In this document: positions 1 to 51,512 of the stretch, one piece after another
Position numbering within the stretch: position 1 is the first letter of the stretch
Layout: every line of letters starts with the position of its first letter
Source: Candidatus Nomurabacteria bacterium GW2011_GWE1_32_28
GTDB taxonomy: Bacteria; Patescibacteriota; Minisyncoccia; Phycocordibacterales; UBA9973
Length of the DNA stretch: 64,000 bases
Reading direction: 5' to 3'
NCBI GenBank assembly: GCA_000989515.1
Contig: LBOM01000003.1
Location: 111,833-175,832, forward strand
The notes under the pieces: generated by a model
What the model was told of the DNA's origin: nothing
Databases searched by the model: none
The model's input: the letters and a program-made list of their open reading frames with translations, nothing else
Program-made: the position numbers and the translations under genes

Positions 1-1319
1 CGTATTTGCCTTACGAGAAAGTTGTAAATAATCTAGTCCAACATCAAGCATAAATTGAAGTCGTGCTTCTATCTCACGAACGACTGGTAGAGATATTTCT
101 TTTTCTTGCTCTGAAAGTTTTAATGTCTTAAAAAATTCTACTGCATCTTCTATTGAAAGAGAAGAAATCTCTAAAATATTTTTACGCTTACTTTCTGTTC
201 CAGTTGAATACAAAAAAACATTTAAGGCTTCTTTGCGTAATCGCGCACCATTACAACCATCACATGGTTCATCTCCAAGAAAATATTTTGAACCTAATCC
301 ATGACAAACTTCACAAGCACCATATGGAGAATTAAAAGAAAAAAGACGTGGCTCAATTTCTGGAAAGGAAAAACCATCATTTTTGCATGCAAATTTTGCA
401 GACATAGTAAATTCACCCATAACAGAAACATCCTCAGAGGAGTATTCGCTATAACCAGATAAATCTTGCCCTTCCAAGATAGTGTGCGAACGACGGCGAG
501 AATGTTTCTGTTCTGGGGAATCAAAAGATACAGTAACCAATCCATCAGATTCAACAAGAGCTCGTTCTAATGCTTCTGCTAGTCTCATTCGACTTTCATC
601 TTTATTATTAGAAAATTCATGTACAGCAAAACAATCAACCAAAATATCAATATTGTGTGCTTTGTTTTTTGATAAAACTATTTGTTCACGTAGTTTCTTT
701 GTCTTTCCATCTAAGCGGATTTCTGAAAAACCCTTACCAAGTAGATCATAAAGCAATTGATAATATTCTCCCTTGCGCCCACGAACAACTGGAGAAAAAA
801 TGCTAATCTTTGTTTCATCCCATTTTACCCCCATGACTGATTTTTTATTCTTTTTACTTTTTTCAAAAGTCTTAACTTTTTCTAAAACAAAATTTAAAAT
901 TTCTTCATTGGAAAGTTTTTTAATTTCTTCACCACACAATGGACAGTGTGGATGACCAATACGTGCATACATTACTCTTAAATAATCATATATTTCTGTT
1001 ATTGTCGCTACAGTAGAACGAGGATTATTAGAACGAGATTTTTGATCTATAGAAATAGCTGGTGAAAGTCCAGTGATTTCGTCCACATCTGGCTTTGGCA
1101 TTTGATTTAAAAATTGCCTTGCATAAGAAGACAATGATTCAATATATCTTCTCTGCCCTTCGGCAAAGATGGTATCAAAAGCAAGAGAAGATTTTCCAGA
1201 ACCAGACACACCAGTAATTGCTACCATACTATTACGTGGTATCTCAATACTTATATTCTTTAGGTTGTGGGTTCTAGCCCCCTTAATTATTATTTTATCT
1301 ATATTTTTATCTGATTTCA
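1..1319 (-). CDS. uvrA: Excinuclease ABC subunit A, N-terminal part (runs off window start)
   Basis: Minus-strand translation from the ATG at 1317-1319 reads [30 protein letters not shown]...[34 protein letters not shown]...[10 protein letters not shown], which are classic UvrA N-terminal motifs. It is absent from the ORF track because there is no stop inside the window. It carries an in-frame GC-rich insertion at ~435-500. Confidence 0.85.
435..500 (-). repeat. Family-A GC-rich inserted element, in-frame in uvrA (encodes ...[23 protein letters not shown]...)
   Basis: ~66 nt GC-rich patch in an AT-rich gene. It is near-identical to 6705-6775 (polA) and 50836-50900 (cca). It contains the small hairpin ATCTTG-N6-CAAGAT. 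Confidence 0.7.
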
Positions 1320-1407
1320 TATAAATTTACTTTATACTTCTATACATAACAAAACTAACCCCGCCATCGTCCATAGGGGGTGTCTATCAATACAATTTAA
1401 CATATTG

Positions 1408-5269: not shown

Positions 5270-7762
5270 CTACTTAACTTCTCCAAAATTATTTCCAAAA
5301 CCAGAATGTACTATCAATGGAATGTCTGTTTTATATTGCAAATAAGATCTCTGAAGAACAGATTCCATTGCATTTTTAATAATTATCTCGACATTTTCAA
5401 GAATATCTTCTTCTACTTCATAAACTAATTCATCGTGTATCTGAAGAACAAGATGGGCTTTCTCTAAAAATCCTTCCCTCTTTAAATCTTCTTCAGAATA
5501 TCTTATCGCGAGTTTTATTATATCAGCAGTCGCTGTACCCTGAATTGGTGCATTGATGGCTGTGCGTTCAGCCATATTTTTTAAAAATGGAATTCTAGAA
5601 TTTATATTAGGAAAGTATCTTCTTCTATTAAACAATGTCTCTGTATATAAATGTCTTGTCGCAAAAATCTTTACACTTTCTAAATAATTTTTTACACCAG
5701 AAAATTGATTAAAATAATTATCATAAAATTTCTGTGCTTCTTCACGAGTACCACCTAAGCTCTTGCGTAAAGATGAAACACCCATACCATAAATAATTCC
5801 AAAATTTATTACTTTTGCCTTACGGCGCATCTCACCATCTACTTTTTCAAGTGGAACACCAAAAACAAAAGAAGCTACTCCAGAATGAATGTCTTTACCA
5901 TCACAAAATATTTGTGTCATTTTTGGGTCTCCCGAGAGCATAGCAGCGACACGAAGCTCTATTTGACTATAATCAAAAGTCAAAAGTTTATATCCTTTTC
6001 CTGCTATAAAACCATTTCGTATCTTTTTACCTAATTCTGTTTTAATAGGTAAATTTTGCAAATTTGGATCTTGAGAAGAAAATCTCCCCGTTGTTGTGCC
6101 GTTTTGTAAAAATTTTGCATGCAAACGATCATCTTCATCTGTCATTTTAGGAATTACATCAATATAAGTAGAAAGTAATTTCTGTAATTCTCTATAAGCT
6201 AATATTTCTTTTATTATTGGATTATTTTCTTCAAGTTCTTCTAATACAGAAACTTTTGTAGAAAAAGACCCACTCGCATTTTTCTTTTTGCTTGATTTCA
6301 TTCCCATTTTATCAAACAAAACTTCTCCTAATTGTTTTGGGGAATTTATGTTAAATTCTAAACCAGACATCTTATATATCTTTTGAGTTAATTTATCTAA
6401 TTCCTTGTGATACTCTTTTGATAAATTTTCAAAATATTTCTTATCTATCAGAATTCCATGGTCCTGCATTTTTTTTACCATGGGTATTATAGGTTTTTCT
6501 ATTTCTTTATATATTTTTTCTAATCCCTTATCTTTTAATTCTTTAAACACATATTCTTTTGCTATTTCAAAAGAATCAGTATTTGCATAATGCAAAACAT
6601 CATCTAGTGTTGGATTTGTAATATCTGAATTTATAATCCAAAGTGCAATTGCTGTTTCTTGTAATTTGTTTTTATCTATAATAATTGGCTTTTGGTGGAC
6701 GTGCTCAGAGGAGTATTCGCTACTACCAGATAAATCTTGCCCTTCCAAGATAGAGTGCGAACGACGGCGAGCATCGTCGCCAGAAGCCAAATTATTATTT
6801 TCATCAAAAAAACTTTTTAATCTTGAATATAGACTTCTAAATTCAAACACTGAAAACATATTTTCAATTTTTTTCAAATCTGCATTCTCCCAAAAAGTTT
6901 TTTCTTGTAATTTAAAATCAACAGGTGCATCAGTTCTTATTTTTGCTAATGTTTTTGAAAATAAAGCTTCTTCTTCGTTATCTTTCAAAAGTTGTATTAT
7001 ACGATCTGTAAGTCCTAATTTTTTAAATTCTAATTCGTAATTCGTAATTCGTAATTGTCTATAAATTTCTTCTATTGTTCCAAAATTAACAATCAAATTC
7101 GTCGCCGTCTTCTCACCAATTCCTTTAATACCAATAATATTATCAGATGGATCTCCTCTCAATCCTTTATAGTCTGGCAACAACTTCGGTTTAAAACCAA
7201 ACCTATCAATCATTTTTTCTTCATCATATAAAATAGTGTCATTAATCCCCTTCTTTAAAGTATAAACTTGTACTTTTTTACCATCAACTAATTGCATCGT
7301 GTCCATATCTCCTGATGCAATAATTATATTTATATCTGGAATTTTTTTTCCGCCAGAGGCGGATCCGCCTCTGGCGGAAATTTTCTCTACAATCGTACCT
7401 AATACATCATCAGCCTCAAAGCCTGGCGCATCATAAATAGGAATATTAAATGCATCAAAGATTTGTCGAGAGTTTTTTAGTTGTAAAATTAAAGCATCTT
7501 CAGTTTTTGCTCTCCCTAATTTATACCCATCGTATGCTTCATGCCTAAAAGTCTTTTGCGGTAAATCATAACAAGCAACAATATAATCTGGTTTTAGATC
7601 AGTAATTATTTTCATTAACATACTAGAAAGACCATACAATGCCCCAGTAGGCTCACCCTTAGAAGACAAAAACTCAGGCAATGCATGATAAGCACGATGT
7701 ATTATCGCATGAGCATCTAATAATACTAATGTTTTTGATAAATTTTTATTATTTTTGACCAT
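5270..7762 (-). CDS. polA: DNA polymerase I (5'-3' exonuclease plus polymerase domains; 3'-5' exo domain reduced)
   Basis: 830 aa. N-terminal 5' nuclease (LVLLDAHAIIHRAYHAL...) and C-terminal pol motifs (DYSQIELR, RRKAKVINFGIIYGM, QIHDELVYEV). It carries three foreign in-frame segments: a perfect palindrome at 7347-7380, a family-A element at 6705-6775 and a heptad repeat at 7026-7057. Confidence 0.95.
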   Translation of the reverse strand: MVKNNKNLSKTLVLLDAHAIIHRAYHALPEFLSSKGEPTGALYGLSSMLMKIITDLKPDYIVACYDLPQKTFRHEAYDGYKLGRAKTEDALILQLKNSRQIFDAFNIPIYDAPGFEADDVLGTIVEKISARGGSASGGKKIPDINIIIASGDMDTMQLVDGKKVQVYTLKKGINDTILYDEEKMIDRFGFKPKLLPDYKGLRGDPSDNIIGIKGIGEKTATNLIVNFGTIEEIYRQLRITNYELEFKKLGLTDRIIQLLKDNEEEALFSKTLAKIRTDAPVDFKLQEKTFWENADLKKIENMFSVFEFRSLYSRLKSFFDENNNLASGDDARRRSHSILEGQDLSGSSEYSSEHVHQKPIIIDKNKLQETAIALWIINSDITNPTLDDVLHYANTDSFEIAKEYVFKELKDKGLEKIYKEIEKPIIPMVKKMQDHGILIDKKYFENLSKEYHKELDKLTQKIYKMSGLEFNINSPKQLGEVLFDKMGMKSSKKKNASGSFSTKVSVLEELEENNPIIKEILAYRELQKLLSTYIDVIPKMTDEDDRLHAKFLQNGTTTGRFSSQDPNLQNLPIKTELGKKIRNGFIAGKGYKLLTFDYSQIELRVAAMLSGDPKMTQIFCDGKDIHSGVASFVFGVPLEKVDGEMRRKAKVINFGIIYGMGVSSLRKSLGGTREEAQKFYDNYFNQFSGVKNYLESVKIFATRHLYTETLFNRRRYFPNINSRIPFLKNMAERTAINAPIQGTATADIIKLAIRYSEEDLKREGFLEKAHLVLQIHDELVYEVEEDILENVEIIIKNAMESVLQRSYLQYKTDIPLIVHSGFGNNFGEVK
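6705..6775 (-). repeat. Family-A GC-rich inserted element, in-frame in polA (encodes ...[25 protein letters not shown]...)
   Basis: Near-identical to 435-500 (uvrA), in the same orientation relative to the coding strand. Confidence 0.7.
7026..7057 (-). repeat. (AATTCGT)n heptad tandem repeat, in-frame in polA (encodes LRITNYELEF)
   Basis: aattctaattcgtaattcgtaattcgtaattg. It belongs to the dispersed heptad family seen in intergenic regions and other genes across the window. Confidence 0.8.
7347..7380 (-). repeat. 34-bp perfect GC-rich palindrome inside polA (encodes ISARGGSASGGKKI)
   Basis: TTTCCGCCAGAGGCGGATCCGCCTCTGGCGGAAA is a perfect inverted repeat centred on GGATCC. Confidence 0.8.
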
Positions 7763-11898: not shown

Positions 11899-12438
11899 AT
11901 GTCAGGACATAATAAATGGTCACAAATAAAACACAAAAAGGGCATCACAGATGCGAAAAAGAGTAAAATTTTTTCTAAACTTGTGCGTTTTATATCAGTA
12001 GAAGCAAAGCTTGCAAGCGGAGATGTAAATGCACCAGGACTTAGAGCTGCAATAGAAAAAGCCAAAAAAGTAAATATGCCTTCTGAAAACATAGAAAGAG
12101 CAATAAAGAAAGCCTCAGAAACAGGAGCACAAATGGAGTCTATTGTATACGAAACTTATGGGCCAGGAGGTGTTGGTATTATAATTGAAACATTAACAGA
12201 CAGTAGAAACAGAACAGCTCAAGACATAAAGCACATCCTGAGTAAAAATAATTTTATGCTCGGTGGAATAGGATCAGTAGCCTGGTCTTTTACTAAAGAA
12301 AAAACAGAAGAAGGAATATTGTGGAAACCAAATATGTTTATATCAATTTCTGATGATGATTTGGTGTTATTAGATAAACTTGTAGAAGAACTAGAAGAAA
12401 ATGATGATGTGCAAGATATCTACACAAATGCAGAATAG
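11899..12438 (+). CDS. yebC: YebC/PmpR-family transcriptional regulator (short form)
   Basis: MSGHNKWSQIKHKKG...KIFSKL at the N-terminus is diagnostic for YebC. Confidence 0.85.
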   Translation: MSGHNKWSQIKHKKGITDAKKSKIFSKLVRFISVEAKLASGDVNAPGLRAAIEKAKKVNMPSENIERAIKKASETGAQMESIVYETYGPGGVGIIIETLTDSRNRTAQDIKHILSKNNFMLGGIGSVAWSFTKEKTEEGILWKPNMFISISDDDLVLLDKLVEELEENDDVQDIYTNAE

Positions 12439-12443
12439 GAACA

Positions 12444-12476
12444 ATTACGAATTATCAATTACGAATTACGAATTTA
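12444..12476. repeat. Heptad repeat (AATTACG orientation) between yebC and ruvC
   Basis: caattacgaattatcaattacgaattacgaatt followed by TAAAATATAC and the ruvC ATG 11 nt later. Confidence 0.8.
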
Positions 12477-12486
12477 AAATATACTT

Positions 12487-17608: not shown

Positions 17609-18706
17609 TTATCTATTCATTGGCATTATAAGATAAGTAAATGAATTGTCAGAATTACCAGAGATTACCATTGGTTTAGAAGATTGATTTAATTTTATAG
17701 AAACACTATCTGTGTTTATGGACTGAAAACAATCAAGAAAATATTTATAATTAAAACCAAGAGTAGTATCACCACCCTTAACTGCAGCATCTAAATAAGT
17801 TTTATTTTCTCCAACGTCGTTATTTTGAGAAGATAATTCAAATACTTTTTCTTTTGTTTTAATTAAAAGATCTATTTGATTAAATTTGTCTGAAAAAATA
17901 TTTGAAAGCTTTAAAGCACTTAACAAGTCTTGCTTTAATACAATAGCCTCAACACCAAATTCTTTTGGGACTATTTGTCTATAGTCAGGAAATACACCAT
18001 CTATAATTCTAGATGTTAAATAAATATAATTAGAAGAAAAAGAAATTTGATTTTTGTTAAAACAAATTTTTATAGTATCCTGTACATCTCCAAAAATTCT
18101 TAATATTTCAGATATATTTTTAAAAGGTATAAGTATGCCCTTTATTTCTTCTATACCTTTAACCTTTATCTTCTTTTCAGCCAATCTAAAAGAATCAGTA
18201 GAAACAAATACTAAATTATCATCGTTTGTATAAATAAAAACACTAGAAATTTCTGGTTTTATATCTGATAAAGAAGAACTATAATATACAGATTTTATAC
18301 CTTCTATTAATTTTTTTGATTCTATTTCAAAAGTTGTTCCATCTACTATTGGTATTGTTGGAAAATCATCTGGAATTTGTCCTTTTAGTTTTATTCTACT
18401 TTTTTTTGATTTAATCATTAAATTACCATTTTCACTTTCAAGACTTACATTTTCATTTTGAAAAATATTAGAAAAAATTCCAGCCAATATTGTTCCAGAA
18501 ATAGCAACAATACCTTCTTTTTCAATTTTTGCAGGAATCTCTATTTCAATACCAAGACTTAAATTGGTTGCTCTAAGTTTTAATGATTTCCCTGATGCAA
18601 TTAATAATATTGAACTCAGAATGGGTAATGTTAAATTTTTACCCGTTATTTTTTCTACTTGCATAATTCCATTTTTAATTTTTTCTACTTCACAATCTAA
18701 TTTCAT
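17609..18706 (-). CDS. dnaN: DNA polymerase III beta sliding clamp
   Basis: 365 aa with a three-domain clamp pattern. N-terminus MKLDCEVEKIKNGIMQVEKI...LPILSSILL. Confidence 0.9.
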   Translation of the reverse strand: MKLDCEVEKIKNGIMQVEKITGKNLTLPILSSILLIASGKSLKLRATNLSLGIEIEIPAKIEKEGIVAISGTILAGIFSNIFQNENVSLESENGNLMIKSKKSRIKLKGQIPDDFPTIPIVDGTTFEIESKKLIEGIKSVYYSSSLSDIKPEISSVFIYTNDDNLVFVSTDSFRLAEKKIKVKGIEEIKGILIPFKNISEILRIFGDVQDTIKICFNKNQISFSSNYIYLTSRIIDGVFPDYRQIVPKEFGVEAIVLKQDLLSALKLSNIFSDKFNQIDLLIKTKEKVFELSSQNNDVGENKTYLDAAVKGGDTTLGFNYKYFLDCFQSINTDSVSIKLNQSSKPMVISGNSDNSFTYLIMPMNR

Positions 18707-18963
18707 ATGTTTATATATTATATATTTAATTTATTACTACTATTAGTGCTGTTGATAAGTGTATAAACTAAATATATCTTATTTTAAATGACTATTTTTA
18801 TAATTTATTTGTTAATTTTAATTATAATAACTATTTGTATTTTTTTATTTATTTTTTAAAATATATTTTTTTATATTTTATTTGTTTTTTATTAACAGTT
18901 TTTATTTAAATTATTCATTGTTTATTGTTGAGTTTTACTTAACTTTTACACACTTATAAACAG
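18707..18963. other. Candidate oriC: AT-rich dnaA-dnaN intergenic region with DnaA-box-like 9-mers
   Basis: 257-bp extremely AT-rich spacer between dnaA and dnaN. It has TGTTGATAA at 18750-18758 (one mismatch to TGTGGATAA) and TTTTACACA-like sites. Synteny is rpmH-rnpA-yidD-yidC-jag then dnaA-dnaN. Confidence 0.45.
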
Positions 18964-20307
18964 CTATTTAAACATAATTCTTATTTGCTCTATCTCTTGT
19001 AATAATTGTGGATCATTTTTTAGGTCTGTTTTTATTTTTAAATAGGAATGAATTACTGTTGTGTGGTCTTTTCCACCAAGTTTTTGTCCTATTAGTGGAT
19101 AGGACACATTAAAATCTTCTCTAAGAATATACATTACTATTTGTCTTGCTTTTACTATTTCTTTTCTTCTTGTCTTTTCATATATTGATGACTCCTCAAG
19201 AGAATAATAATCACTTATTGTTTTTACCACTTCTTTTATGGATACATTTTTCTTTTGTTTTATGTTATTTTTGAGTAAGTTTTTTACTTCTGGTATTGTA
19301 AGAGGTTTATTTTTGAGTCTATAGTGACAAACTATTGTATTTAAACTCCCCTCTAGCTCCCTTATGTTTCCTTGTATTGACTGTGCAACATATTCTATTA
19401 TTTCTTGACCCAAATCAATATTTTGTTCTTTTAATTTTACTTTTAATATTGCAAGACGTGATTCATATTCTGGTTCTGAAACATCAACTATCATTCCAGC
19501 TGCAAAACGGGATTTGAGACGATCTGCTAGTTCGGGAATATAGTTTGGATGTTTATCTGAAGAAAAAATAATTTGTTTATTGTTTTCGTAAAATGTATTA
19601 AATGTATGAAAAAGTTCTTCTTGTATTTTTTCCATTTTACCAATAAATTGTATGTCATCTATAATTAAAAGATCATATTTTCTATATTTTTCCTTAAAAG
19701 AGTTTGCTTTGTTATTTTGTAGTGAATTTACAAAATCAGTAGCAAATTTTTCTAGGGTTATATAGTGTACTTTTTTGTTTGGATATTTATCTTTTATTGA
19801 ATTCCCCACTGCTTGAATTAGATGTGTTTTTCCGAGCCCAGTTCCACCATAAACAAAGAAAGGGTTATACTTGGTACCAGGATTTTCTATTATTGCTTGA
19901 GATGCAGCGTGTGCGAGTTCATTAAAAGTTCCAACTATAAAAGAATTAAAATGATATCTAGGGTTTAGATTATCATCTGGATTTATATATAGATCTCTTA
20001 GTGGTAGTTCTTTGTTTACATAAGATTCGCTTACTTTTATTGGCTCTTGTTTATTTGTTTCTATCTTTGTAATAACATATTCTACCGCTCTCATGTTTTC
20101 ATATGAATCTGCTATGGTTTTTGTTATTAGTTTGTGATATTTATTTTTTAACCAATCACGTACAAACTCATTTGGTACTCCAACATAAACGATACCAATT
20201 TCCTCTTTTATAATACATGTATTTTTAAACCATGTGCTAAAGTTTGCCTTAGAAACACCACCTTCTATTTCTACTAGACAATTTTTCCAGAGTTGTTTTA
20301 TATCCAT
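18964..20307 (-). CDS. dnaA: Chromosomal replication initiator DnaA
   Basis: AAA+ Walker A GGTGLGKTHLIQAVGN, and a C-terminal DNA-binding domain with the DnaA signature (IGQKLGGKDHTTVIHS). Confidence 0.95.
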   Translation of the reverse strand: MDIKQLWKNCLVEIEGGVSKANFSTWFKNTCIIKEEIGIVYVGVPNEFVRDWLKNKYHKLITKTIADSYENMRAVEYVITKIETNKQEPIKVSESYVNKELPLRDLYINPDDNLNPRYHFNSFIVGTFNELAHAASQAIIENPGTKYNPFFVYGGTGLGKTHLIQAVGNSIKDKYPNKKVHYITLEKFATDFVNSLQNNKANSFKEKYRKYDLLIIDDIQFIGKMEKIQEELFHTFNTFYENNKQIIFSSDKHPNYIPELADRLKSRFAAGMIVDVSEPEYESRLAILKVKLKEQNIDLGQEIIEYVAQSIQGNIRELEGSLNTIVCHYRLKNKPLTIPEVKNLLKNNIKQKKNVSIKEVVKTISDYYSLEESSIYEKTRRKEIVKARQIVMYILREDFNVSYPLIGQKLGGKDHTTVIHSYLKIKTDLKNDPQLLQEIEQIRIMFK

Positions 20308-22066: not shown

Positions 22067-22070
22067 TATT

Positions 22071-33272: not shown

Positions 33273-33310
33273 TTTGTTTCTAACTTTTTTCCTTCTCTAT
33301 TTATTTACTT

Positions 33311-33356
33311 TCTGTATTTTAAATTCGTAATTCGTAATTGTTAATTCGTAATTGAC
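33311..33356. repeat. Heptad element with conserved flank TTCTGTATTTTAAATTCGTAATTCGTAATTGTTAATTCGTAATTGAC
   Basis: The 50-nt string is identical to 34236-34282 and closely related to 40769-40800, 26556-26596 and 25441-25470. It lies ~45 nt upstream (gene sense) of the 30741-33272 start. Confidence 0.85.
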
Positions 33357-34183
33357 TTACCTTTTTTCTTCTCCAAGAAGTTATCTTTTGTAACCACTGA
33401 ATGTCCTAACCTTTTTTCTAATTTTTTACGTGCTCCACCAGCTATATTTCCTCCTGCTTTTGCATCAGATTTTAATTTTGAAATTCCTTTGGAATGCTCT
33501 TTCTTGTGTATTTCTGTCGTTGCTGTTTCAGCAAGCATATTTAACACAAGTTCAAGATTCGTCATATTATCTCTCAGACTTTGTTTTTTTAATTCTTTAA
33601 GATTTTTATATTCTTTTGTCGTGAGTCCTGCCCAAGCCTTCGTGATCTCATCTGTTAGTATAGCAAATTCTTTGCCTTCCTTTACTCCACGGTTTTCCCA
33701 TTCATCAGTTAATGATTTTCGGATTTCAATACTTTTTAATCTTTGATTTATCCAGTTTTGACTATATCCTTTTTGTAGATATGTTTTTAACGCACGATTT
33801 ATAGAAAGCTCTGGGTCTGCTGTTTCTTCTAATCTCTCATAGCCTACACGAGCAAGCCAGAGTTTAAATGGTTCAGCTTTTGGTGATGGAATAGATTGAA
33901 TTAAACGGAACATTACTTCTGTGTCAGCTACATCAGTAATATAATATTTACCATCTGATGCTTGCATTTTCAGATGGTGACATTTTGTCACCATCTCACT
34001 ACCTTCGTCACGAAGTCTTTGAGCTAGCTTGTTCCAGTATTTTCTTGCATCAATACTTTCTGTTAAAACTTTAACTACATCAACAACCGAAAAATACCAT
34101 AATTCTTTTTCAGCATCCCAGTGTCTGCGAATTTCTTTGTTGTCAAAAATTGCTATTTTATTTTTTGTATTTTTCTTTTGCAT
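33341..34183 (-). CDS. Bro-N / DinD-family protein (phage antirepressor-like, DNA-damage-inducible protein D family)
   Basis: 280 aa. N-terminal Bro-N pattern KIAIFDNKEIRRHWDAEKELWYFSVVDVVKVLTES. The C-terminal half parallels E. coli DinD. Paralog of 62223-63065. Confidence 0.65.
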   Translation of the reverse strand: MQKKNTKNKIAIFDNKEIRRHWDAEKELWYFSVVDVVKVLTESIDARKYWNKLAQRLRDEGSEMVTKCHHLKMQASDGKYYITDVADTEVMFRLIQSIPSPKAEPFKLWLARVGYERLEETADPELSINRALKTYLQKGYSQNWINQRLKSIEIRKSLTDEWENRGVKEGKEFAILTDEITKAWAGLTTKEYKNLKELKKQSLRDNMTNLELVLNMLAETATTEIHKKEHSKGISKLKSDAKAGGNIAGGARKKLEKRLGHSVVTKDNFLEKKKGKSITN

Positions 34184-34235
34184 TTTACTTTCTAACTTTA
34201 TAAACTTTATGACTTTCTACTCTCTCCTGTTCTTT

Positions 34236-34282
34236 TTCTGTATTTTAAATTCGTAATTCGTAATTGTTAATTCGTAATTGAC
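34236..34282. repeat. Heptad element (identical copy of 33311-33356)
   Basis: ttctgtattttaaattcgtaattcgtaattgttaattcgtaattgactta. Confidence 0.85.
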
Positions 34283-36712
34283 TTATCGTTTTTTGAAGTA
34301 GTATTCGTAATCAGAAGCATCTTTGAGTATCGTAGATGTGTTTCTTATGTCTATAATCTTATCATAATAATATTCATACACTGTTAATTTATTTCCAATG
34401 AGCTGGAGCTGATATGCTGCCACGTCTGGTTCACTTACACGTATTTCTCTACCGTCTTCAGTGACATAACCAAACATCCTTGCAATTTGATCTGATAGAT
34501 ACCATGCAAAATTTTGTAAATCTGTGCCTTCTTCATAGCCATATAATTTAGCGAATTCTTTGTCTGCCATTATTTGTCTTGTAAAAACTGTTTCTATTCC
34601 TTCATGATATCGCACAACATCACCTTCTCGTGGAGTCACTTTTTGTCCCAATGTAAGAGGTGTTGTATTTATTATACCAGTATTGTTTGTATTATTATTT
34701 CCAGTATTGTTTGTATTGTTGCCGGTTACTCCAGGGATCCAAACACCAGCTACCCATGTTCCAGGAGTCCAAGCATCGTCTACCCAAGATACTGGAGTCC
34801 AAGCACCATCCATCCAAGCTGTAGGAATCCATGTATTGTTTTCCCAAATCTCAGCAATCCATGTACCATTTTCCCAAGATCCATTAGTCCATCCATCGTC
34901 TCCAGTCCAGTCTGTGTCTCCGTTGGTATCAACATAAATATATGCATTGCCACTTGCTGTTCCCTTGTCTCCATTACAAGATACAGAAAAAGATGTTGAA
35001 GATGCAGGACGAACTCTTTGTTGTCCATTTAGACCAACAGAGATTCCATCAAATTTACAAGAAGTAGTGTTTTCAGATGACCAAGTTATCGTTGCTGGGC
35101 CATCTTTTTCTGATAGATAATAAGAGTCTGCTGTTACTCTGACCTTGGGTAATGATTTATAATAATCATCTTCGCCATCTCCACCCTCTCCTTCTCCGCT
35201 AGTATTAACATAAACATATGCATTAGCACTTGCTGTTCCGTTAGGGCCACTACATGTTATTGAATAAGAAGTAGATGATGTAGGTTGAACAATCGCTGGT
35301 TTTCCTGCGCTATTTGTTGCTACTGTATTTTTTACTTCTTTATCTCCAAAAGAACAGGAAGTGGTGTTTGTTGATGTCCAATTTATTGTTGAAGAATCAC
35401 CAGGAGAAATTGTATAAGGATTTGCTGAAAGGATTACTGTAGGGAAAATATTATTATAGATACAAAAAGTTTTTGATTCATTTAAAATATATGGAGGAGT
35501 ACATGTAGGAGTATATCCATAACTATCACACGTAGGATAATTAATAGCACCATTTGTACAATAATCCCAACCAGTACCATTATCACTTCCATCACCCCAA
35601 TTAGAGCCATCGTCTCCTCCATAAGGAGTATTCTTCGGTGCAGCTTTTGTTGTGAAACTAAAAGTAGAACCAGTAATTTTTACAGTATCTTCTCCTGTCG
35701 CCATAAAAATATATTTTGTAGATGGTCTTAATCCTGATAATGAAAAACTTATATTTCCATAAATATTACTACGGTTACCTATGGTGTAAGATTTTTCTCC
35801 GACATCCTTCCAAGAGGGAGCTACTTCTTTAAATGCATATATTTCAGTATATGGTCTATCTTCTTTATATCGGAAATAAGTTTTTAGGTCCTTAACGGAA
35901 TTATAAGAACCATTTAATTTTGCGGACGTTGAAGTTATTTGTGTCGCATCTTTTGTTTCAATTATTGTTTTTAATGGGGCTGTGCGGAAGTCTTTTACTA
36001 TACTGTCTCCACCATAGGCTATATTATTCTTATTAGAAATAATTGCACAATAATAATAAGTAGTATCTGGTATTAAGTTTTCAATTTCTTGAGAAAAAGT
36101 CTGTTCTCCTGTAATTAATTTTAAAAATAAATCTTTTGTTGATTTCATTTTTGTTCCATAGATATCATTACAAAAAATAGGGGCTATTTTTTCTTTTGAA
36201 TATCTAAAATATGCAGTAATTGGGAGTGTTGGATTTGTAGTAGTATAGCCACCCTTTCCCCATAATCTTGCGGTAGTTTGTGTTACCTCATCTGCACCTA
36301 TTGTTTGTATGGAGAGCTTAGAAGTATCTGAAGGAGAAGATACTGGTATATTTTTTACATTTATTGTTATTGTTCTTGGTCCTACTTCTACTTCTGTATT
36401 TCTTTCTTCGTCATACCCATAACAATTAAGTGTGTATACACTTTCTTTTTCATTTGGGGTAACTACTAAATTTCCACTTCCACTTAATGACGACGTATCA
36501 TTTATTTTACAAGATGTTGAATAGTCAGATGAAGACGAAGACCAAGAAAGAGTGACTGACTCTCCATTGTTTATTGAGTAAGAAGAAGCTACAAAGTTAT
36601 TTATATAAAGAAAAAAGGTGTTGTATTCTTGTTGTGCAGAAACATTGTTTATATAAAATGCACTTAAAATAAATATGAATATTATTAGAATTTTTAGTAT
36701 GTTTTTTTTCAT
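34283..36712 (-). CDS. Large secreted repeat protein (Ig/FN-like modules, Trp-rich tandem repeats)
   Basis: 809 aa with a signal peptide. Repeated Cys-containing modules (YTLNCYGYDEE / YSITCSGPNGTASANAYVYV / FSVSCNGDKGTASGNAYIYV) and a W-rich tract WIAEIWENNTWIPTAWMDGAWTPVSWVDDAWTPGTWVAGVWIPG. Confidence 0.55.
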   Translation of the reverse strand: MKKNILKILIIFIFILSAFYINNVSAQQEYNTFFLYINNFVASSYSINNGESVTLSWSSSSSDYSTSCKINDTSSLSGSGNLVVTPNEKESVYTLNCYGYDEERNTEVEVGPRTITINVKNIPVSSPSDTSKLSIQTIGADEVTQTTARLWGKGGYTTTNPTLPITAYFRYSKEKIAPIFCNDIYGTKMKSTKDLFLKLITGEQTFSQEIENLIPDTTYYYCAIISNKNNIAYGGDSIVKDFRTAPLKTIIETKDATQITSTSAKLNGSYNSVKDLKTYFRYKEDRPYTEIYAFKEVAPSWKDVGEKSYTIGNRSNIYGNISFSLSGLRPSTKYIFMATGEDTVKITGSTFSFTTKAAPKNTPYGGDDGSNWGDGSDNGTGWDYCTNGAINYPTCDSYGYTPTCTPPYILNESKTFCIYNNIFPTVILSANPYTISPGDSSTINWTSTNTTSCSFGDKEVKNTVATNSAGKPAIVQPTSSTSYSITCSGPNGTASANAYVYVNTSGEGEGGDGEDDYYKSLPKVRVTADSYYLSEKDGPATITWSSENTTSCKFDGISVGLNGQQRVRPASSTSFSVSCNGDKGTASGNAYIYVDTNGDTDWTGDDGWTNGSWENGTWIAEIWENNTWIPTAWMDGAWTPVSWVDDAWTPGTWVAGVWIPGVTGNNTNNTGNNNTNNTGIINTTPLTLGQKVTPREGDVVRYHEGIETVFTRQIMADKEFAKLYGYEEGTDLQNFAWYLSDQIARMFGYVTEDGREIRVSEPDVAAYQLQLIGNKLTVYEYYYDKIIDIRNTSTILKDASDYEYYFKKR

Positions 36713-39647: not shown

Positions 39648-39778
39648 ACAATTCGTAATTGATTTTATTATATCATTCCTAATTACTAATTTGTAATTAG
39701 TTTCCCACTTTTTTGTATTTTCAATTCGTAATTTGTAATTGACTTCCACTCTTCTTTTTTTTCTAATTCGTAATTGAC
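39648..39778. repeat. Extended heptad repeat tract (~130 nt) between island genes
   Basis: caattcgtaattgatttt...cattcctaattactaatttgtaattag...tgtattttcaattcgtaatttgtaattgacttcc...ttctaattcgtaattgacc. Confidence 0.8.
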
Positions 39779-40711: not shown

Positions 40712-40768
40712 TTTGATTAGTAATTAATTTATTTTTTATTCTCTTCTTTAAATTCCTGATTGATTTTT

Positions 40769-40800
40769 TTCTGTATTTTAAATTCGTAATTCGTAATTGA
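40769..40800. repeat. Heptad element with TTCTGTATTTTAAATTCG flank
   Basis: ttctgtattttaaattcgtaattcgtaattga. Confidence 0.85.
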
Positions 40801-40801
40801 C

Positions 40802-41194
40802 CTACCTGCTTGTTCCAAAAAGGTCTATTCTCTCTAGTGAGACCATTTTTGATGGCCCTGATTCATGAAAACAAGTTATTAATTCTATTCCCCCGTACCT
40901 ACCTAGTATGAGTTGCCCTGTTCTTAATGCATTTCCAGTTTTTGATATTGTGCTATATGGAATGAAGTAATTCATTGGTGTTCCAGGGGGTGAACCGATC
41001 GTTGAAATCGAGATCGAAGTACCAGGCACATAACAGAGATAGCCAGCACCTTCTAGTGTTTCTATCTCAATGGCTTTTGTGCTTAGTATCTTTCCTCCAA
41101 AAAATCCACCAAAAGAAGAATAAGCAAGAACTATTTTTGTTCCAATAAATAAAAATGAAATAGTTAGCAAAAATAAAATGATGCCTTTTTTCAT
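40802..41194 (-). CDS. Small secreted protein
   Basis: 130 aa with signal peptide MKKGIILFLLTISFLFIGTKIVLA. This is the start-proximal gene of the island. Confidence 0.45.
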   Translation of the reverse strand: MKKGIILFLLTISFLFIGTKIVLAYSSFGGFFGGKILSTKAIEIETLEGAGYLCYVPGTSISISTIGSPPGTPMNYFIPYSTISKTGNALRTGQLILGRYGGIELITCFHESGPSKMVSLERIDLFGTSR

Positions 41195-41226: not shown

Positions 41227-42174
41227 CTACTCTTTTTTGTTGATATCTATGATTTTTGTGAGATTGATCCAATCTGAGAGAGTTAAATTTTCTGCTCTTT
41301 TGTTTCCAAGAGATTCTAACTTAATCATCGAGTCAAGGGCGGAGGCAATTCCTCCGCCCTTGAGAAATGTTTTTAAATTTGAGGAGAGTTTTTTTCTTTT
41401 ATGGGCAAAGCCAGTATGTATTATTTCCCAAAATTTCTCTTCATTTAGTTTATTTTTGATAAAAATTTTTCTTGAGATGTTTTTTATAGCGATTATTGCG
41501 GAATCTACCTTTGGGGCAGGAGAAAAATACCTTGAAGGCACCTTCATAATTATTTTAGGGCTCCCATATGCCTTTACTGATATGGATAAAATACTTTCCT
41601 TGCCGTCGCGTGCGACTATTCTCTTTGCTACTTCGTTTTGTACCATCAAGATCATCATCTCTGGTTGTTCTTTTTCTGAAAGAAACTTTTTCAATATGGC
41701 ACCAGTTATATTATAGGGAATATTAGCGATAATTTTATAAGAAAAATAATGAGGAATATTATTTTTAAAACCACACATATTTCCCTGCTGGGAAATTGCT
41801 ATGCTCGGCTCGACAGCCTGCGCAATGCTTTTAAAAACAACATTCCTCATTATTTTTCTAATTTGTAATTTGTAATTTGTAATTTGTAATTTTAGTATGT
41901 CATCATTTATTAAAATTAATTTCTGGTTTTTTATTTCTTCAGAGAATTTAATTTTTAGAAGTTCATAAAGTTCGTAGTCTTTTTCTATGGCTACAACACA
42001 GCCTGCTTTTTCTAAAAGTTTTTCTGTTAAGGCACCCTTTCCGGGTCCTATTTCTAGTATAATATCTCGAGAAGAAACTTCTCCAGCCTCTACTATTTTT
42101 TTTAATGCGATAGTAGATTTTAAGAAATTTTGACCTAATGATTTTTTTGCTTTGTGTATTTTCTGCATTTTCAA
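41227..42174 (-). CDS. rsmA: 16S rRNA (adenine1518/1519-N6)-dimethyltransferase
   Basis: SLGQNFL...ILEIGPGKGALTEKL... is the KsgA family signature. It has two foreign in-frame segments: a palindrome at 41333-41363 (encodes LKGGGIASAL) and an (AATTTGT)n repeat at 41858-41892 (encodes LKLQITNYKLQI). Confidence 0.9.
   Translation of the reverse strand: MKMQKIHKAKKSLGQNFLKSTIALKKIVEAGEVSSRDIILEIGPGKGALTEKLLEKAGCVVAIEKDYELYELLKIKFSEEIKNQKLILINDDILKLQITNYKLQIRKIMRNVVFKSIAQAVEPSIAISQQGNMCGFKNNIPHYFSYKIIANIPYNITGAILKKFLSEKEQPEMMILMVQNEVAKRIVARDGKESILSISVKAYGSPKIIMKVPSRYFSPAPKVDSAIIAIKNISRKIFIKNKLNEEKFWEIIHTGFAHKRKKLSSNLKTFLKGGGIASALDSMIKLESLGNKRAENLTLSDWINLTKIIDINKKE
41333..41363 (-). repeat. 31-bp GC-rich palindrome inside ksgA
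   Basis: TCAAGGGCGGAGG-CAATT-CCTCCGCCCTTGA is a perfect 13-bp inverted repeat. Confidence 0.8.
41858..41892 (-). repeat. (AATTTGT)5 heptad tandem repeat, in-frame in ksgA
   Basis: ctaatttgtaatttgtaatttgtaatttgtaatttt. Confidence 0.8.
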
Positions 42175-42206
42175 TTCGTAATTCGTAATTCGTAATTGTT
42201 AATTTG
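42173..42206. repeat. Heptad repeat between uvrD end and ksgA start
   Basis: caattcgtaattcgtaattcgtaattgttaatttg begins immediately after the ksgA start codon. Confidence 0.8.
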
Positions 42207-42210
42207 TAGT

Positions 42211-44244
42211 TTATATATAAATTGTTTTTATTCCTCCTTCCTCACCTTCTTTCTCTAGTATATCACTTGGAATATCTGAAATAAATTCAGATGGAGCATT
42301 TATTTGTCTAGAGCCAAATATTGTACGGAAATTTGCAAATGATAAAAATAATTTTTCACGAGCTCTTGTGATTGCTACGTAAAAAAGTCTACGTTCTTCT
42401 TCTTTGTCTTCTCCATTTTTACTCTCATTATTTCTTCTGTGTGGAAAAAGTCCATCTTCTAATCCTGTAGTAAAAATATATTTAAATTCAAGACCTTTTG
42501 ATGCATGCACTGTCATTAATTTGACAGCATTTGTTTCTGTTTTTTTATTTTCAGCAATCATCATTGAGTCTTGATCTGAGGCTAATGACGCATCTTCTAA
42601 AAGTTTCTCTATTCCCAATCCGTCCTTTGAATTATCATATTTTAGAGCCAATGTTACTAATTCTTTTATGTTTTCTAATCTTTCCATGTCTTCTTCTGTG
42701 CCGGTTGAAAGCTCCGTCTCTATTCCAGATTTTTTTACTGCGAACCTAATGACTTCAGATGCTTTTGAACTTTTAATTTTTTCTTTTATTTCTTCTAATA
42801 TTTTATAAAAATTATCTATCTTTATTTTTACTTTTATTGGTAGATTTTCCTTTTCTCCAGAAAAAAGTTTTATCAATGTTACTTTCCCTATTCCCCTAAC
42901 AGGGAAATTTATTATTCTTTTTATTTCAGAAAGACTTTCAGGATTTAGTGCGCAACGTAAATAAGCGAGAGTATCTTTTATTTCTTTTCTTTCAAAAAAT
43001 TTAACACCCAAAACTTGGTATGGAATATTGTATCGTAGCAATGCTTCTTCTAGAGCGCGGGATTGAAAATTTGCACGATAGAGGATGGCAACGTCAGACA
43101 AAATTATGGATGCTACCTTAGAAGGGTCGCTGTCTAGGTCTGTTGACCTAGCGCTGCCTCTCGGCTCGTCAGCCTGCGAGACACCCTTCAAAGGTACATC
43201 CGTAATTTTGTCTAAAAGTTCTAAAATTTTTGTTGCGACGAAATCAGCTTCATCATTTTCATCTAATGCTTCATATAGTCCTATCTTCTCTCCAGTTTTA
43301 TTTTTGGTAAATAAATTTTTATCAGGCCTGTATACATTCTTTTTTATTACCTCATTTGCTGCCTCTAATATGTTTTGAGTTGATCTATAATTCTCTTCAA
43401 GTAATATTATTTTTGTTTCTTTTCCATAATCTTTTTCAAAACTTAAAATATTTTTTAAATTTGCTCCACGCCAAGAATAAATATTTTGATCGGCATCTCC
43501 AACTACACAAATATTTTTATTTTTTTCAGAAAGCAAACGTGACATCAAATATTGTACTTCATTTGTGTCTTGATATTCATCTATGTGTATGTATTCCCAT
43601 TTTTCTTGATAGATTTTTCTTATTTCTTCTTTTTCTTTTAATAGTTTTGTTGCTTTTAAAAGTAGATCATCAAAATCTAAAGAATTCTCTTTAGCTTTTT
43701 TCTTTTCATATAGGGCCCAGACTTGAGCTACTAGTTTACTTAAATAGTCATACACTTTTTCCTCATAATCTTTTAAATGTGTGAATTTACCTTTTTCTCT
43801 ACTTATTATATTTTTTATTTTTCTAGGATCATATTGTTTTGGATCTATTCCTAATTCTTTTAGTGATTCTTTGATCAATGTAGTGGAATCAGAATCATCT
43901 AATATTGTAAAATGTCTAGTAAGACCCAAAATATGGGCATTTTCTTTGATTATATAGACTCCTAGTGAGTGAAAAGTAGACACAAAAGGAACAGAATCTT
44001 GACCTTTTATATGTTTTTTTATTTCTGAAATTATTCGTTCACGCATTTCTTTTGCTGCCTTGTTTGTGAATGTCACAGCTAAGATTTTATCTGGAGATAT
44101 TCCATTTTTAATTAAATTCAATATTCTATGTGTTATTGTCTTCGTTTTTCCTGCACCAGCTCCAGCGACAATCAAAATAGGACCATTCATATGAATGGCA
44201 GCTTCTCTTTGCATAGCATTTAGTCCTTTTAAGTGTTCTTCCAT
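42211..44244 (-). CDS. uvrD: UvrD/PcrA-family ATP-dependent DNA helicase
   Basis: LNAMQREAAIHMNGPILIVAGAGAGKTKTITHRI... with helicase motifs I-VI. The start is taken at MEEHLKG (ATG 44242-44244) immediately after TATAAT. The ORF-track start is at 44268. It has a family-B GC-rich insertion at 43124-43188. Confidence 0.9.
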   Translation of the reverse strand: MEEHLKGLNAMQREAAIHMNGPILIVAGAGAGKTKTITHRILNLIKNGISPDKILAVTFTNKAAKEMRERIISEIKKHIKGQDSVPFVSTFHSLGVYIIKENAHILGLTRHFTILDDSDSTTLIKESLKELGIDPKQYDPRKIKNIISREKGKFTHLKDYEEKVYDYLSKLVAQVWALYEKKKAKENSLDFDDLLLKATKLLKEKEEIRKIYQEKWEYIHIDEYQDTNEVQYLMSRLLSEKNKNICVVGDADQNIYSWRGANLKNILSFEKDYGKETKIILLEENYRSTQNILEAANEVIKKNVYRPDKNLFTKNKTGEKIGLYEALDENDEADFVATKILELLDKITDVPLKGVSQADEPRGSARSTDLDSDPSKVASIILSDVAILYRANFQSRALEEALLRYNIPYQVLGVKFFERKEIKDTLAYLRCALNPESLSEIKRIINFPVRGIGKVTLIKLFSGEKENLPIKVKIKIDNFYKILEEIKEKIKSSKASEVIRFAVKKSGIETELSTGTEEDMERLENIKELVTLALKYDNSKDGLGIEKLLEDASLASDQDSMMIAENKKTETNAVKLMTVHASKGLEFKYIFTTGLEDGLFPHRRNNESKNGEDKEEERRLFYVAITRAREKLFLSFANFRTIFGSRQINAPSEFISDIPSDILEKEGEEGGIKTIYI
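43124..43188 (-). repeat. Family-B GC-rich element, in-frame in uvrD (encodes ...ADEPRGSARSTDLDSDPSK...)
   Basis: gggtcgctgtctaggtctgttgacctagcgctgcctctcggctcgtcagcctgcgagacaccc matches the reverse complement of the uvrB insertion at 2224-2298, apart from the internal mini-hairpin. Confidence 0.7.
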
Positions 44245-44319
44245 AATTATAATATTAGCACATAACAAAAATAGCCCACCATTTTTTATTATGAGTTATT
44301 TTTGAGTAAGTTTTTTAGA

Positions 44320-49912: not shown

Positions 49913-49922
49913 CAAAATATAG

Positions 49923-51512
49923 ATGAGCCCTTTAGAACTCAAAAACTTAATATCTAAAATTCCCAAAAAAGTTTTATTTGTAACGGACACGCTTGAAGAA
50001 GCAGGTTTTGAAGCGTACCTTGTTGGTGGGTGTATAAGGGATATTCTTATAGGTAGAGAACCAAAGGATTGGGACATAACGACAAATGCTAAACCAGAAC
50101 AAATTATTGGGCTTTTTGAAAAAACGGTATATGAGAATGAATTTGGTACTGTAATGGTTATTCAAGAAGATGTTTCACAAGAAACATTACGTCAAATAGA
50201 GGTTACACCATATAGAATTGAGGCAAAATATACTGATTTTAGGCACCCAGACGGGGTTTTATTTAGTAATGACATAGAAGATGATCTTAAGAGACGTGAT
50301 TTTACAGTAAATGCAATGGCTTTTAGACCTAAAGGACATGATAAAAACTTTGTAGATATATTTGGTGGTCTAAAGGACATAAAAGATAAAATATTAAAAG
50401 CGGTAGGCGAGCCTGATGATCGTTTTGTCGAAGATCCGCTTCGGATGCTTCGAGCCATTCGTATTGCTTTACAGCTTGGTTTTTCTATATCCTATGAAAG
50501 CAGTGAAAGTATTTTAAAAAATGCAGACTTAATAAAAAAAATATCACCAGAAAGAATTCGTGATGAATTTATAAAAATAATTATTTCACCAAATCCATCT
50601 GTTGGAATAGTGATGTTGCAAAAATTTGGATTATTAAAAAACATTATTCCAGAACTAGAAGAGGGAATAGGTTGTGAACAATCTGGGGAACATATCTATG
50701 ATGTGTGGAACCATTTACTTCATGCATTACAACATGCGGCAGATAAAGATTGGCCTTTAGAAGTAAGGCTCGCAGCCCTTTTTCATGATATTGGAAAACC
50801 AAAATCTAGGAGATCTATAGAAATAGAAGGAAATGCTCTCCGTCGTTCGCACACTATCTTGGAAGGGCAAGATCAAAAACTTTCGCAGCGAATACTCCTG
50901 CAAGCACATCCTTCTATTTCTAAGAAAAAATATACTTTTTATGGTCATGAAGTGATAGGGTACAGAATGGCAAAGAAAATATTAGAACGATTAAAATTTT
51001 CAAAAAAAGAAATTGAATTAATTGAAAAACTTGTTCGCAATCATATGTTTTTTTCTGATACAGAATTGATTACGCTTTCTGCTGTACGTAGAATTATTTC
51101 AAAAGTAGGAAAAGAAAATATTTGGCTTCTTATGGATGTCCGTGAGTGTGATAGAGTAGGCATGAAAAAAAAGGAAGCACCCTATCGTCTACGTAAATAT
51201 TTTGCAATGATAGAGGAAGCTCTACATGATCCTATATCTGTAGGACAGCTAAAAATAGATGGAGAATTCATGATTAAGGAACTTAAAATTAAGCCAGGCC
51301 CTAGAATGGGATGGATTTTACACGCTCTTTTGGAAGAAGTCTTAGATGACCCAACGAAGAATGATAAAGGACATCTTAGCCTTTTAGTTGAATCATTAAA
51401 TATGCTCGGTGATAATGAATTAAGGACATTGGGTGAAAGGGGAAAAGAAAAAAAGGATGAGCTAGAGATAGAAGAGATCGATAAATTAAAAAAGAGACAT
51501 GGAGTGAAGTAA
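49923..51512 (+). CDS. cca: CCA-adding tRNA nucleotidyltransferase with HD domain
   Basis: Pol-beta NTase head LVGGCIRDILIGREPKDWDITT, HD motif LFHDIGKP. It has a family-A GC-rich in-frame insertion at 50836-50900 (encodes ...[26 protein letters not shown]...). Confidence 0.9.
   Translation: MSPLELKNLISKIPKKVLFVTDTLEEAGFEAYLVGGCIRDILIGREPKDWDITTNAKPEQIIGLFEKTVYENEFGTVMVIQEDVSQETLRQIEVTPYRIEAKYTDFRHPDGVLFSNDIEDDLKRRDFTVNAMAFRPKGHDKNFVDIFGGLKDIKDKILKAVGEPDDRFVEDPLRMLRAIRIALQLGFSISYESSESILKNADLIKKISPERIRDEFIKIIISPNPSVGIVMLQKFGLLKNIIPELEEGIGCEQSGEHIYDVWNHLLHALQHAADKDWPLEVRLAALFHDIGKPKSRRSIEIEGNALRRSHTILEGQDQKLSQRILLQAHPSISKKKYTFYGHEVIGYRMAKKILERLKFSKKEIELIEKLVRNHMFFSDTELITLSAVRRIISKVGKENIWLLMDVRECDRVGMKKKEAPYRLRKYFAMIEEALHDPISVGQLKIDGEFMIKELKIKPGPRMGWILHALLEEVLDDPTKNDKGHLSLLVESLNMLGDNELRTLGERGKEKKDELEIEEIDKLKKRHGVK
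50836..50900 (+). repeat. Family-A GC-rich inserted element, in-frame in cca
   Basis: ctccgtcgttcgcacactatcttggaagggcaagatc...cgcagcgaatactcctgcaag is the reverse complement of the uvrA/polA copies. Orientation relative to the coding strand is the same in all three genes. Confidence 0.7.

Follow-up and report, generated by a model that had tools for sequence, protein, structure and literature searches.

Family A is a short GC-rich palindromic element that lies within the reading frames of unrelated genes of Candidatus Nomurabacteria bacterium GW2011_GWE1_32_28. It was studied in a stretch of 64 kb of contig LBOM01000003.1 (assembly GCA_000989515.1, positions 111,833 to 175,832 of the forward strand), called here the window, in which dnaA, dnaN and ruvABC indicate a chromosomal context. 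Three copies are present, in uvrA, polA and cca, and each of them is in frame inside a long open reading frame (ORF). The UvrA ORF (minus strand) is partial, running off the start of the window, and matches the structure 2R6F in the PDB. The PolA ORF (5270-7762, minus strand) was aligned with Taq polymerase, while the Cca ORF (49923-51512, plus strand) encodes an HD-domain CCA-adding enzyme that is 100% identical to an NCBI protein from a Candidatus Nomurabacteria metagenome-assembled genome and is recorded on 10 contigs.

The unit in uvrA (416-517, minus strand) is made of an arm, a core and a second arm. Its GC-rich core of 70 nt (432-501, minus strand; nhmmer score 82.9 bits) contains the hairpin P3, ATCTTG-GAAGGG-CAAGAT, at 463-480, and its downstream arm, ATGTTTCTGTTATGGG in the sense orientation of the element (416-431, minus strand), pairs with the upstream arm CCCAGAACAGAAACAT (502-517, minus strand). 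In polA, the unit (6685-6790, minus strand) is found in the linker between the 5'-nuclease and polymerase domains. It comprises a 70-nt core (6703-6772, minus strand; 91.4 bits) with its hairpin at 6734-6751, a downstream arm of sense ACGTCCACCAAAAGCCAA (6685-6702, minus strand) and an upstream arm of sense TTGGCTTCTGGCGACGAT (6773-6790, minus strand). The cca unit (50818-50922, plus strand) occupies a loop of the HD domain between HDIGKPKSRR and KKKYTFYGHE, with a core of 71 nt (50835-50905, plus strand; 85.0 bits), a hairpin at 50856-50873 and the arms AGAAATAGAAGGAAAT upstream (50819-50834, plus strand) and ACATCCTTCTATTTCT downstream (50906-50921, plus strand). The polA and uvrA cores are 93% identical, and the three copies share one orientation relative to the coding strand, defined as sense.

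The core consensus reads GCTC-TCCGTCG-TTCGC-ACTCT-ATCTTG-GAAGGG-CAAGAT-(13-14 variable)-GCGAA-TACTCCTCC-GAGC. It holds three nested inverted repeats, GCTC/GAGC, TTCGC/GCGAA and ATCTTG/CAAGAT, around an asymmetric interior, and the alignment of the copies places a variable centre of 13-14 nt between two conserved blocks. Outside the core, inverted-repeat arms of 15-19 bp (16-18 nt in the window) are observed in every copy, which brings the whole palindrome to about 104 nt. The sequence of these arms differs from site to site and, besides GCTC/GAGC, only the core-proximal bases (GGAACAT, followed by the GCTC of the core) are shared among them. When translated, the three copies give RRSH(S/T)ILEGQD and then SEYSSE in uvrA and polA or QRILLQAHP in cca.

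A first-pass annotation, made from the letters of the window, had already placed GC-rich segments in these three genes, and their location was borne out by a 34-nt core pattern that matched the window exactly three times versus no expected match (100 shuffles). Its remark that their GC content is far above that of the surroundings was right, with 0.53 in the core versus about 0.30 over the window, and so were the ATCTTG-N6-CAAGAT hairpin, the variable centre and the translated peptides. The extent of 65-70 nt that it had proposed suits the core and leaves out the arms of the palindrome. The same orientation, which it had noted for all copies, is true of the three in the window but fails as a rule for the family, inverted copies being found elsewhere at the cca and polA sites. 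As for its three unrelated essential genes, the hosts are indeed unrelated and the segments in frame, but uvrA is not normally an essential gene. The site-specific arms, the missing target-site duplication, the inverted copies and the other GC-rich families at the same sites did not figure in that annotation.

Copies and alleles in relatives

Further copies were sought by scanning 185,579 species genomes and the JGI metagenomes for the 18-nt hairpin and then applying an nhmmer profile of the core. This yielded 26 distinct full copies and one truncated copy, one to four per contig and all on Patescibacteria-type contigs of 30-42% GC; the remaining hairpin matches had no flanking core and were set aside as chance. 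Only five sites are occupied, namely the inter-domain linker of PolA, two positions in UvrB (before DESH and before PGQIQDF), the beta-hairpin of UvrA and the HD-domain loop of Cca, and all 26 full copies are in frame and free of stop codons. In the window and in the contigs L036, L002 and L047, a stretch of about 8 kb contains uvrA, uvrB and polA, so that the copies are locally clustered. Within a single genome (L008), the cores found in two different genes, uvrB and polA, are 0.97 identical. No true family-A copy was found in the viral contigs that were searched, and thus no sign of a phage vector. In parallel, a profile of the three window peptides gave four matches against 1.84 billion representatives, of which three were true, and these were fragments of Patescibacteria-type Cca, PolA and UvrB. 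With only three true matches, the peptide appears to be rare and limited to these host proteins.

The truncated copy (L017, 1135-1265) belongs to a polA gene and lacks its 5' 18 nt and upstream arm, the frame being shifted between the 5'-nuclease and polymerase parts. Either polA is naturally split here, or this 2.4-kb contig is misassembled. L047 (ENA contig_21250) is a syntenic relative whose polA, uvrB, uvrA and several more genes are broken up into two to four ORFs each, probably as a result of indel errors in long reads. In its polA, an inverted family-A core precedes what remains of the 3' end of a sense copy. L002 (CAYPAN010000001.1) bears the label Candidatus Saccharibacteria, but in uvrB and polA, family-A arms included, it is similar to the Paceibacterota contig L008: the uvrB flanks are 74-76% identical and the arms at the first uvrB site almost the same. 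The taxonomic label of L002 or its binning may be wrong.

Family A is polymorphic for presence and absence. The UvrA insert was found in none of the 120 closest homologues listed (up to 78% identity) and is carried only by the window and L036, and the empty homologues close the hairpin directly as LVTIKIGEEEFVMSAKFAC. The empty uvrA allele of L047 reads ACT ATA AAA ATT GGC GAA GAT GAA TTT, whereas the filled allele of the window reads TTT GAT, then the inserted segment from TCC CCA to GTT ATG (418-519; 102 nt, 34 amino acids), then GGT GAA TTT. Among 120 Cca homologues listed (69-84% identity), the HDIGKPKSRR-KKKYTFYGHE segment measures 25 to 78 residues and about 45 carry family A. The empty form of this loop, LAEPG, is seen at 75-83% protein identity, and relative to it the window copy adds 31 amino acids. 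At about 85% identity of the flanks, carriers of the empty allele are intermingled with those of the sense and inverted ones.

The insertion points are surface loops, or loops predicted to be disordered, that are compatible with the fold of the host. UvrA residues 266-296 have no counterpart in the UvrA of G. stearothermophilus (2R6F), where they correspond to a gap between residues 255 and 256, and the PolA insert lies within query residues 290-413, an inter-domain linker left unaligned to Taq polymerase. In an AlphaFold2 model of Cca built on a 52-sequence alignment, residues 299-335 have a predicted local distance difference test (pLDDT) score below 50 and no secondary structure. In the model, this stretch is flanked by two short strands, and the rest of the HD domain is predicted with confidence.

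Conservation in family A is found at the level of nucleotides and not of the peptide. The core was more conserved than the flanking coding sequence (300 nt on each side) in 67/67 orthologous pairs, with mean identities of 0.88 vs 0.77 in polA, 0.93 vs 0.81 in cca and 0.87 vs 0.75 in uvrB, and of 0.84 vs 0.83 in the single uvrA pair. Core identity is inflated in these figures because most copies were ascertained with the exact 18-mer, and by arithmetic on the means it is still about 0.84-0.91 when the 18 bases fixed in this way are left out. The peptide varies in several ways. In cca, the centre is longer by 1 nt and the conserved 3' block GCGAATACTCCT is therefore read in another frame (QRILL vs SEYSS). 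In the inverted copies of the cca site (L026 and P0047), the other strand is translated, as ...SCPSKIECERRR..., and these copies as well as the inverted polA copy of L047 encode unrelated peptides. The core is open in four of its six frames, yet 24/24 sense copies use the hydrophilic one, suggesting that selection bears on tolerability alone. In L124, a broken relic shows decay towards AT.

The cca site is a hot spot at which inversions and chimeras were also observed. It holds at least five other GC-rich families, together with frame variants, inverted copies and a truncation at the hairpin loop (P0037). P0012, P0027, P0105 and P0113 are chimeras that join ALRRSH-I, the left part of family A, to a different family, either D or C, and the so-called family E proved to be family D inverted (39/44 positions). 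Family B, which has site-specific arms of about 30 nt, is present twice in the window, in uvrB (2203-2320) and in a UvrD-like helicase (about 43100-43215; ORF 42211-44268). These two copies are mutually inverted though both genes are on the minus strand, and family B also fills the cca hot spot in P0124. Because family E is an inverted family D and family B occurs in both orientations, flipping and site reuse can be taken as properties of the whole class of elements. In the uvrB gene of the window, a 27-nt GC-rich palindrome, TTTTCCCCGTCACCAGGTGAAGGGGAA (2629-2655), lies between His and Pro codons at the exact site where L001, L002, L008 and L031 carry family A, and it represents either a small element of another kind or a footprint.

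Arms of the palindrome and competing explanations

The arms of family A covary and are in part derived from the host gene. In the 26-copy alignment, the share of paired cells is 90.5% for the complete structure and 88.6% for the outer helix, and across 26/26 full copies Watson-Crick pairs account for 85% of the first 16 positions of the arms. Both sides change in 18/21 outer-helix pairs. When the 3' partners were slid, whole-structure pairing dropped from 90.5% to about 40%, and no shuffle reached the observed covariation. The inner helices never covary and are either invariant or broken. A hairpin variant in L044 (GTCCTG...CAAGAT) was considered as a case of covariation and rejected, as the change is not compensatory; inner helices only decay. 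The upstream arm of polA is homologous to arms of L008, L014 and L015, with compensating changes, and the uvrA arms of the window and of L036 differ by paired changes in both arms.

The origin of the arms is visible in uvrB, where the downstream arm consists of the native ...CCT GAT TTT TT... codons (PDFL) that the UvrB of the window also retains. The upstream arm, which is inserted, is the reverse complement of these codons, and where they differ synonymously, in L001, L008, L031 and L002, it differs along with them. In the same way, at the cca site, the native LAEP codons are paired with downstream TGGGCTCAGCTAA in family C (TTA GCT GAG CCC) and with downstream GCGGAGCCG in family D. In the cca gene of L016, the native LAE codons are replaced by TTCTTGGAAGC (FLE), which is complementary to downstream GCTTCCAAGAA (KK codons). 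Comparison of empty and filled alleles disclosed no target-site duplication at the uvrA or cca junctions and, instead, an inverted copy of one flank.

Family A is therefore proposed, with a probability of roughly 0.7, to be a selfish palindromic DNA element that is non-autonomous, inhabits Patescibacteria (Nomurabacteria/Paceibacteria-type genomes) and owes both the origin and the continued pairing of its arms to replication template switching. The heritable unit would be the 70-nt GC-rich quasi-palindromic core, and it would survive only after landing in frame in a permissive surface loop. The insert would then be transcribed and translated as a hydrophilic, disordered loop of 31-34 residues, the peptide itself presumably being functionless. 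At replication, the core hairpin would promote intramolecular template switching by fold-back priming, the nascent strand snapping back to copy its own upstream flank and leaving an inverted duplicate on the far side of the core. With the opposite direction of replication, the other flank would be duplicated. The expected outcome is a pair of site-specific arms of 15-19 bp, with host codons on one side and their reverse complement on the other. Repeated switching would keep the arms paired in a concerted evolution, perfect and extend the palindrome and convert mismatches. It could also overwrite host codons, invert the asymmetric interior or flip the core, and make the hairpin a breakpoint that gives rise to truncations and chimeras. 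New sites would be seeded rarely and mostly nearby, as in uvrA, uvrB and polA within about 8 kb, probably by replication or recombination and not by a classical cut-and-paste transposase. Such a replicative or recombinational route is favoured because the copies are locally clustered and no duplications accompany them.

A more far-reaching and only tentative proposal is that of a transposase-independent class of parasites, the 'fold-back coding palindromes', in which a hairpin core would spread and persist purely by template switching. It would include the use of host codons as arms, the overwriting of codons so as to perfect the palindrome, flips in place and a competition of core families for a small number of permissive loops in proteins of the candidate phyla radiation.

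Several points weigh against a selfish element maintained by template switching. The switching itself is read from sequence anatomy, and selection for a DNA or RNA hairpin could also pair the arms. Translation of the insert and flipping in situ are likewise deduced from the sequences. Both uvrA arms look inserted and not host-derived, so that part of each arm may travel with the element. One of the two open sense frames is used throughout, which calls for selection against the hydrophobic frame, here assumed. The conservation of the core is overstated by the exact 18-mer ascertainment. Finally, the window covers 64 kb of the genome and a trans-acting enzyme may be encoded elsewhere.

Such an enzyme is what a conventional miniature inverted-repeat transposable element (MITE) would require, being mobilised in trans by a transposase encoded elsewhere with the arms as its terminal inverted repeats. 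Family A resembles a MITE in being palindromic, non-coding in itself, polymorphic for presence and found in several copies per genome, and the likeness of the core-proximal arm bases across sites as well as the inserted look of both uvrA arms go in the same direction. However, the arms vary from site to site and consist, in their outer parts, of host codons, the uvrA and cca junctions have no target-site duplication, and the one to four copies per contig are locally clustered. Moreover, other families reuse identical sites in both orientations, and a scan of 48 ORFs of the window detected no transposase, HUH enzyme, Y1 enzyme or reverse transcriptase, a Xer-like tyrosine recombinase being the single candidate of this kind. 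A MITE is thus considered unlikely. The long and strongly covarying outer stem could also be that of a structured RNA acting within the mRNA, be it an RNase III or regulatory hairpin, a ribozyme, a spliced or excised sequence or a site of translational bypass, with selection on the RNA pairing the arms. Several hosts (uvrA, uvrB and polA) do belong to one pathway, and on the sense strand the uvrA copy folds more stably than its shuffles (z=-2.2), but the polA and cca folds are not unusual (z=-1.2 and -0.7). Over the window, Rfam gave only tRNAs at the gathering score and no match for 390-550 at E up to 10, and the known ribozymes and introns were rejected on this ground. On the sense strand, A.C mismatches in the arms (26) exceed G.U mismatches (10), the opposite of what RNA pairing predicts, so that pairing in the mRNA is not favoured. 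The inner helices decay with no compensating change, and both orientations relative to the mRNA are found at identical sites. The open frame of 26/26 full copies would be needless in a segment that is excised or bypassed, and removal of the whole hairpin by excision or ribosomal bypass was rejected because it would delete native conserved residues, PDFL in UvrB and LAEP in Cca. A function in RNA is accordingly judged quite improbable.

A functional DNA site, such as a cruciform, a protein-binding site or a coding cassette whose inversion alternates the loop peptide between two forms, would agree with a core better conserved than the neighbouring coding sequence, with the two orientations seen at one site and with the RuvB, RuvC and Xer-like recombinase encoded in the window. 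It is made very improbable by the many close relatives with empty alleles, the unrelated cores that fill identical sites, the decay of broken copies and arms too variable for a site-specific recombinase; nor was switching within a population seen. That RRSHSILEGQD is common to UvrA, UvrB, PolA and Cca, always in one frame in sense copies, might suggest a peptide module that serves as a docking, regulatory or degradation tag on nucleic-acid enzymes. This reading is largely refuted by the frame-shifted and inverted copies, as the C-terminal half differs in cca and inverted copies encode unrelated peptides at the identical site. In addition, close orthologues do without the peptide or have other inserts, the segment is predicted to be disordered and the conservation at the nucleotide level extends to synonymous positions, which leaves a peptide function with hardly any credit. 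An assembly or binning artefact comes to mind because all sources are metagenome assemblies, among them L047 with its split genes and L017 with its frame-breaking truncation. Its probability is close to negligible, given that the identical insert-bearing Cca is present on 10 contigs from several archives and that dozens of independent assemblies contain orthologous copies whose flanks have diverged.

The first-pass annotation had taken the segments for a small non-autonomous element, mobile or spread by recombination, that is tolerated inside proteins, and the relatives, the empty sites and the loop location support this view. Relatives have the core both at these sites and elsewhere, the site is empty in the 120 closest UvrA homologues listed as well as in many Cca homologues (75-83% identity), and the insertion sites, which it had proposed to compare with surface loops, fall in surface or disordered loops in UvrA (the 2R6F gap) and Cca (pLDDT below 50). 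The target-site duplications that it had thought worth looking for are missing at the uvrA and cca junctions. Two outcomes that it had named as fatal, the same peptide in unrelated phyla and chimeric assemblies, were not encountered: the 1.84 billion representatives contained the peptide in no unrelated phylum, and the 10 contigs with identical Cca and the orthologous copies in many independent assemblies speak for genuine sequences.

Other features of the window

Further palindromes are scattered over the window. In polA, a perfect 34-nt palindrome, TTTCCGCCAGAGGCGGATCCGCCTCTGGCGGAAA (within 7336-7391), encodes SARGGSASGGK in the 5'-nuclease domain, at a gap in Taq polymerase. A ksgA-like rRNA dimethylase gene contains two GC-rich in-frame palindromes (41320-41369 and 41737-41862), one of them with 37-nt arms. 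Another repeat family has two inverted copies, at 52831-52935 within a racemase-like ORF (52331-53338) and at 55107-55204 just upstream of the Xer-like recombinase (54125-55042), and one of the two appears to be intergenic. Its core of about 66 nt includes GGTTCGAGTGCGGGC, which resembles a tRNA T-arm, and each copy has its own arms of 16-27 nt.

Arrays of the heptamers AATTACG/AATTCGT (for example CAATTACGAATTATCAATTACGAATTACGAATTTAAAATA) were observed just upstream of many start codons, in the orientation of the gene. They are located at 7012-7070, 12435-12481, 21266-21324, 22574-22678, 25437-25495, 26496-26608, 33309-33367, 34235-34293, 39650-39756, 40768-40826, 42160-42232 and 57613-57650, and look like a shared promoter or operator module. 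These arrays are commonest in a gene cluster that resembles a type IV secretion system (26-46 kb). This cluster (26607-46704) encodes large unannotated proteins with VirB4/TraG-like and PrgI-like members, a protein of the 23S rRNA intervening-sequence type and BRO-N proteins, and it may represent a conjugation-like or pilus system. The chromosomal origin region is marked by dnaN, dnaA, rnpA, yidC and an R3H protein (17609-22580).

Relation to known palindromic elements

The closest bacterial analogue of family A seems to be the Rickettsia palindromic elements (RPEs), of which it would be an analogue and not a member, the RPEs being compared here by description. RPEs are sequences of about 150 bp that form several families and are found in tens of copies, in frame within unrelated genes (Ogata et al. 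2000, reviewed in PMC10969869). Both they and family A are short palindromes that interrupt unrelated housekeeping genes in frame, in a genome that is small and AT-rich and at sites compatible with the fold. RPEs are translated along with the host protein, as family A presumably is, and both are represented by several families per genome and have no transposase of their own. They differ in phylum and sequence, and family A has a 70-nt core instead of about 150 bp, one to four copies per contig instead of tens, outer arms that are site-specific and partly host-derived, and sites reused by several families in both orientations. Moreover, RPEs lose the identity of their repeats over time (PMC6649704), whereas the arms of family A stay paired.

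The GC clusters of yeast mitochondria, which are mostly intergenic, measure 30-50 nt and have a putative AG/TA target duplication (PMC4478555), are also comparable. These and other mitochondrial double-hairpin elements share with family A the GC-rich palindromes in an AT-rich genome, rapid turnover, the merging or shuffling of families into chimeras, horizontal or recombinational spread and a sporadic distribution. Family A is distinct in being intragenic and in frame, on a bacterial chromosome and with no duplication. Template switching is well established as a process that generates perfect inverted repeats and lets their arms evolve in concert. It has been discussed for the mitochondrial coding palindromes of Nematomorpha, both for their origin and for the maintenance of their arms (PMC6649704), and has been proposed for de novo hairpins (bioRxiv 10.1101/2023.04.19.537475). 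In the Nematomorpha repeats as in family A, both arms are coding and translated, in family A presumably so, and undergo concerted paired substitutions. However, the former are perfect repeats of up to 284 bp in conserved protein regions with no shared mobile core, while in family A the repeated unit is a conserved core between arms of 15-19 bp.

MITEs and the repetitive extragenic palindromic (REP) sequences with their bacterial interspersed mosaic elements (BIMEs) are, like family A, small, non-autonomous and hairpin-forming (PMC10969869; PMC3733652). Family A differs from MITEs by the lack of conserved terminal inverted repeats, of a target-site duplication and, in the window, of a partner insertion sequence. 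REPs are extragenic, 20-40 bp long, often clustered and tagged by a terminal GTAG/CGTC, and they go with a REP-associated tyrosine transposase (RAYT) gene. Family A is intragenic, with a 70-nt core that is not arranged in REP-like clusters, and the window has no Y1/HUH gene. The tetranucleotides CGTC and GTAG, seen by inspection inside the core, are noted as a lead. No earlier description of such elements in the candidate phyla radiation was found in the literature, whose coverage here was incomplete. Family A can be described as a selfish coding palindrome of the RPE or GC-cluster kind, with host-derived and co-evolving arms, a flip-flop of orientation and a competition among families for hot spots as its distinctive traits.

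If this picture is true, in-frame selfish palindromes are not peculiar to Rickettsia and organelles and also shape the housekeeping proteins of the candidate phyla radiation, a huge and poorly understood group of bacteria with tiny genomes. They would explain part of the unusual protein insertions of these organisms, which annotators and structure predictors should then mask as non-homologous loops. The elements would also be convenient as strain-level markers. Moreover, the many allele states per site, whether empty, sense, inverted or chimeric, would provide a natural data set for replication template switching and would show how coding sequence and DNA secondary structure are reconciled.

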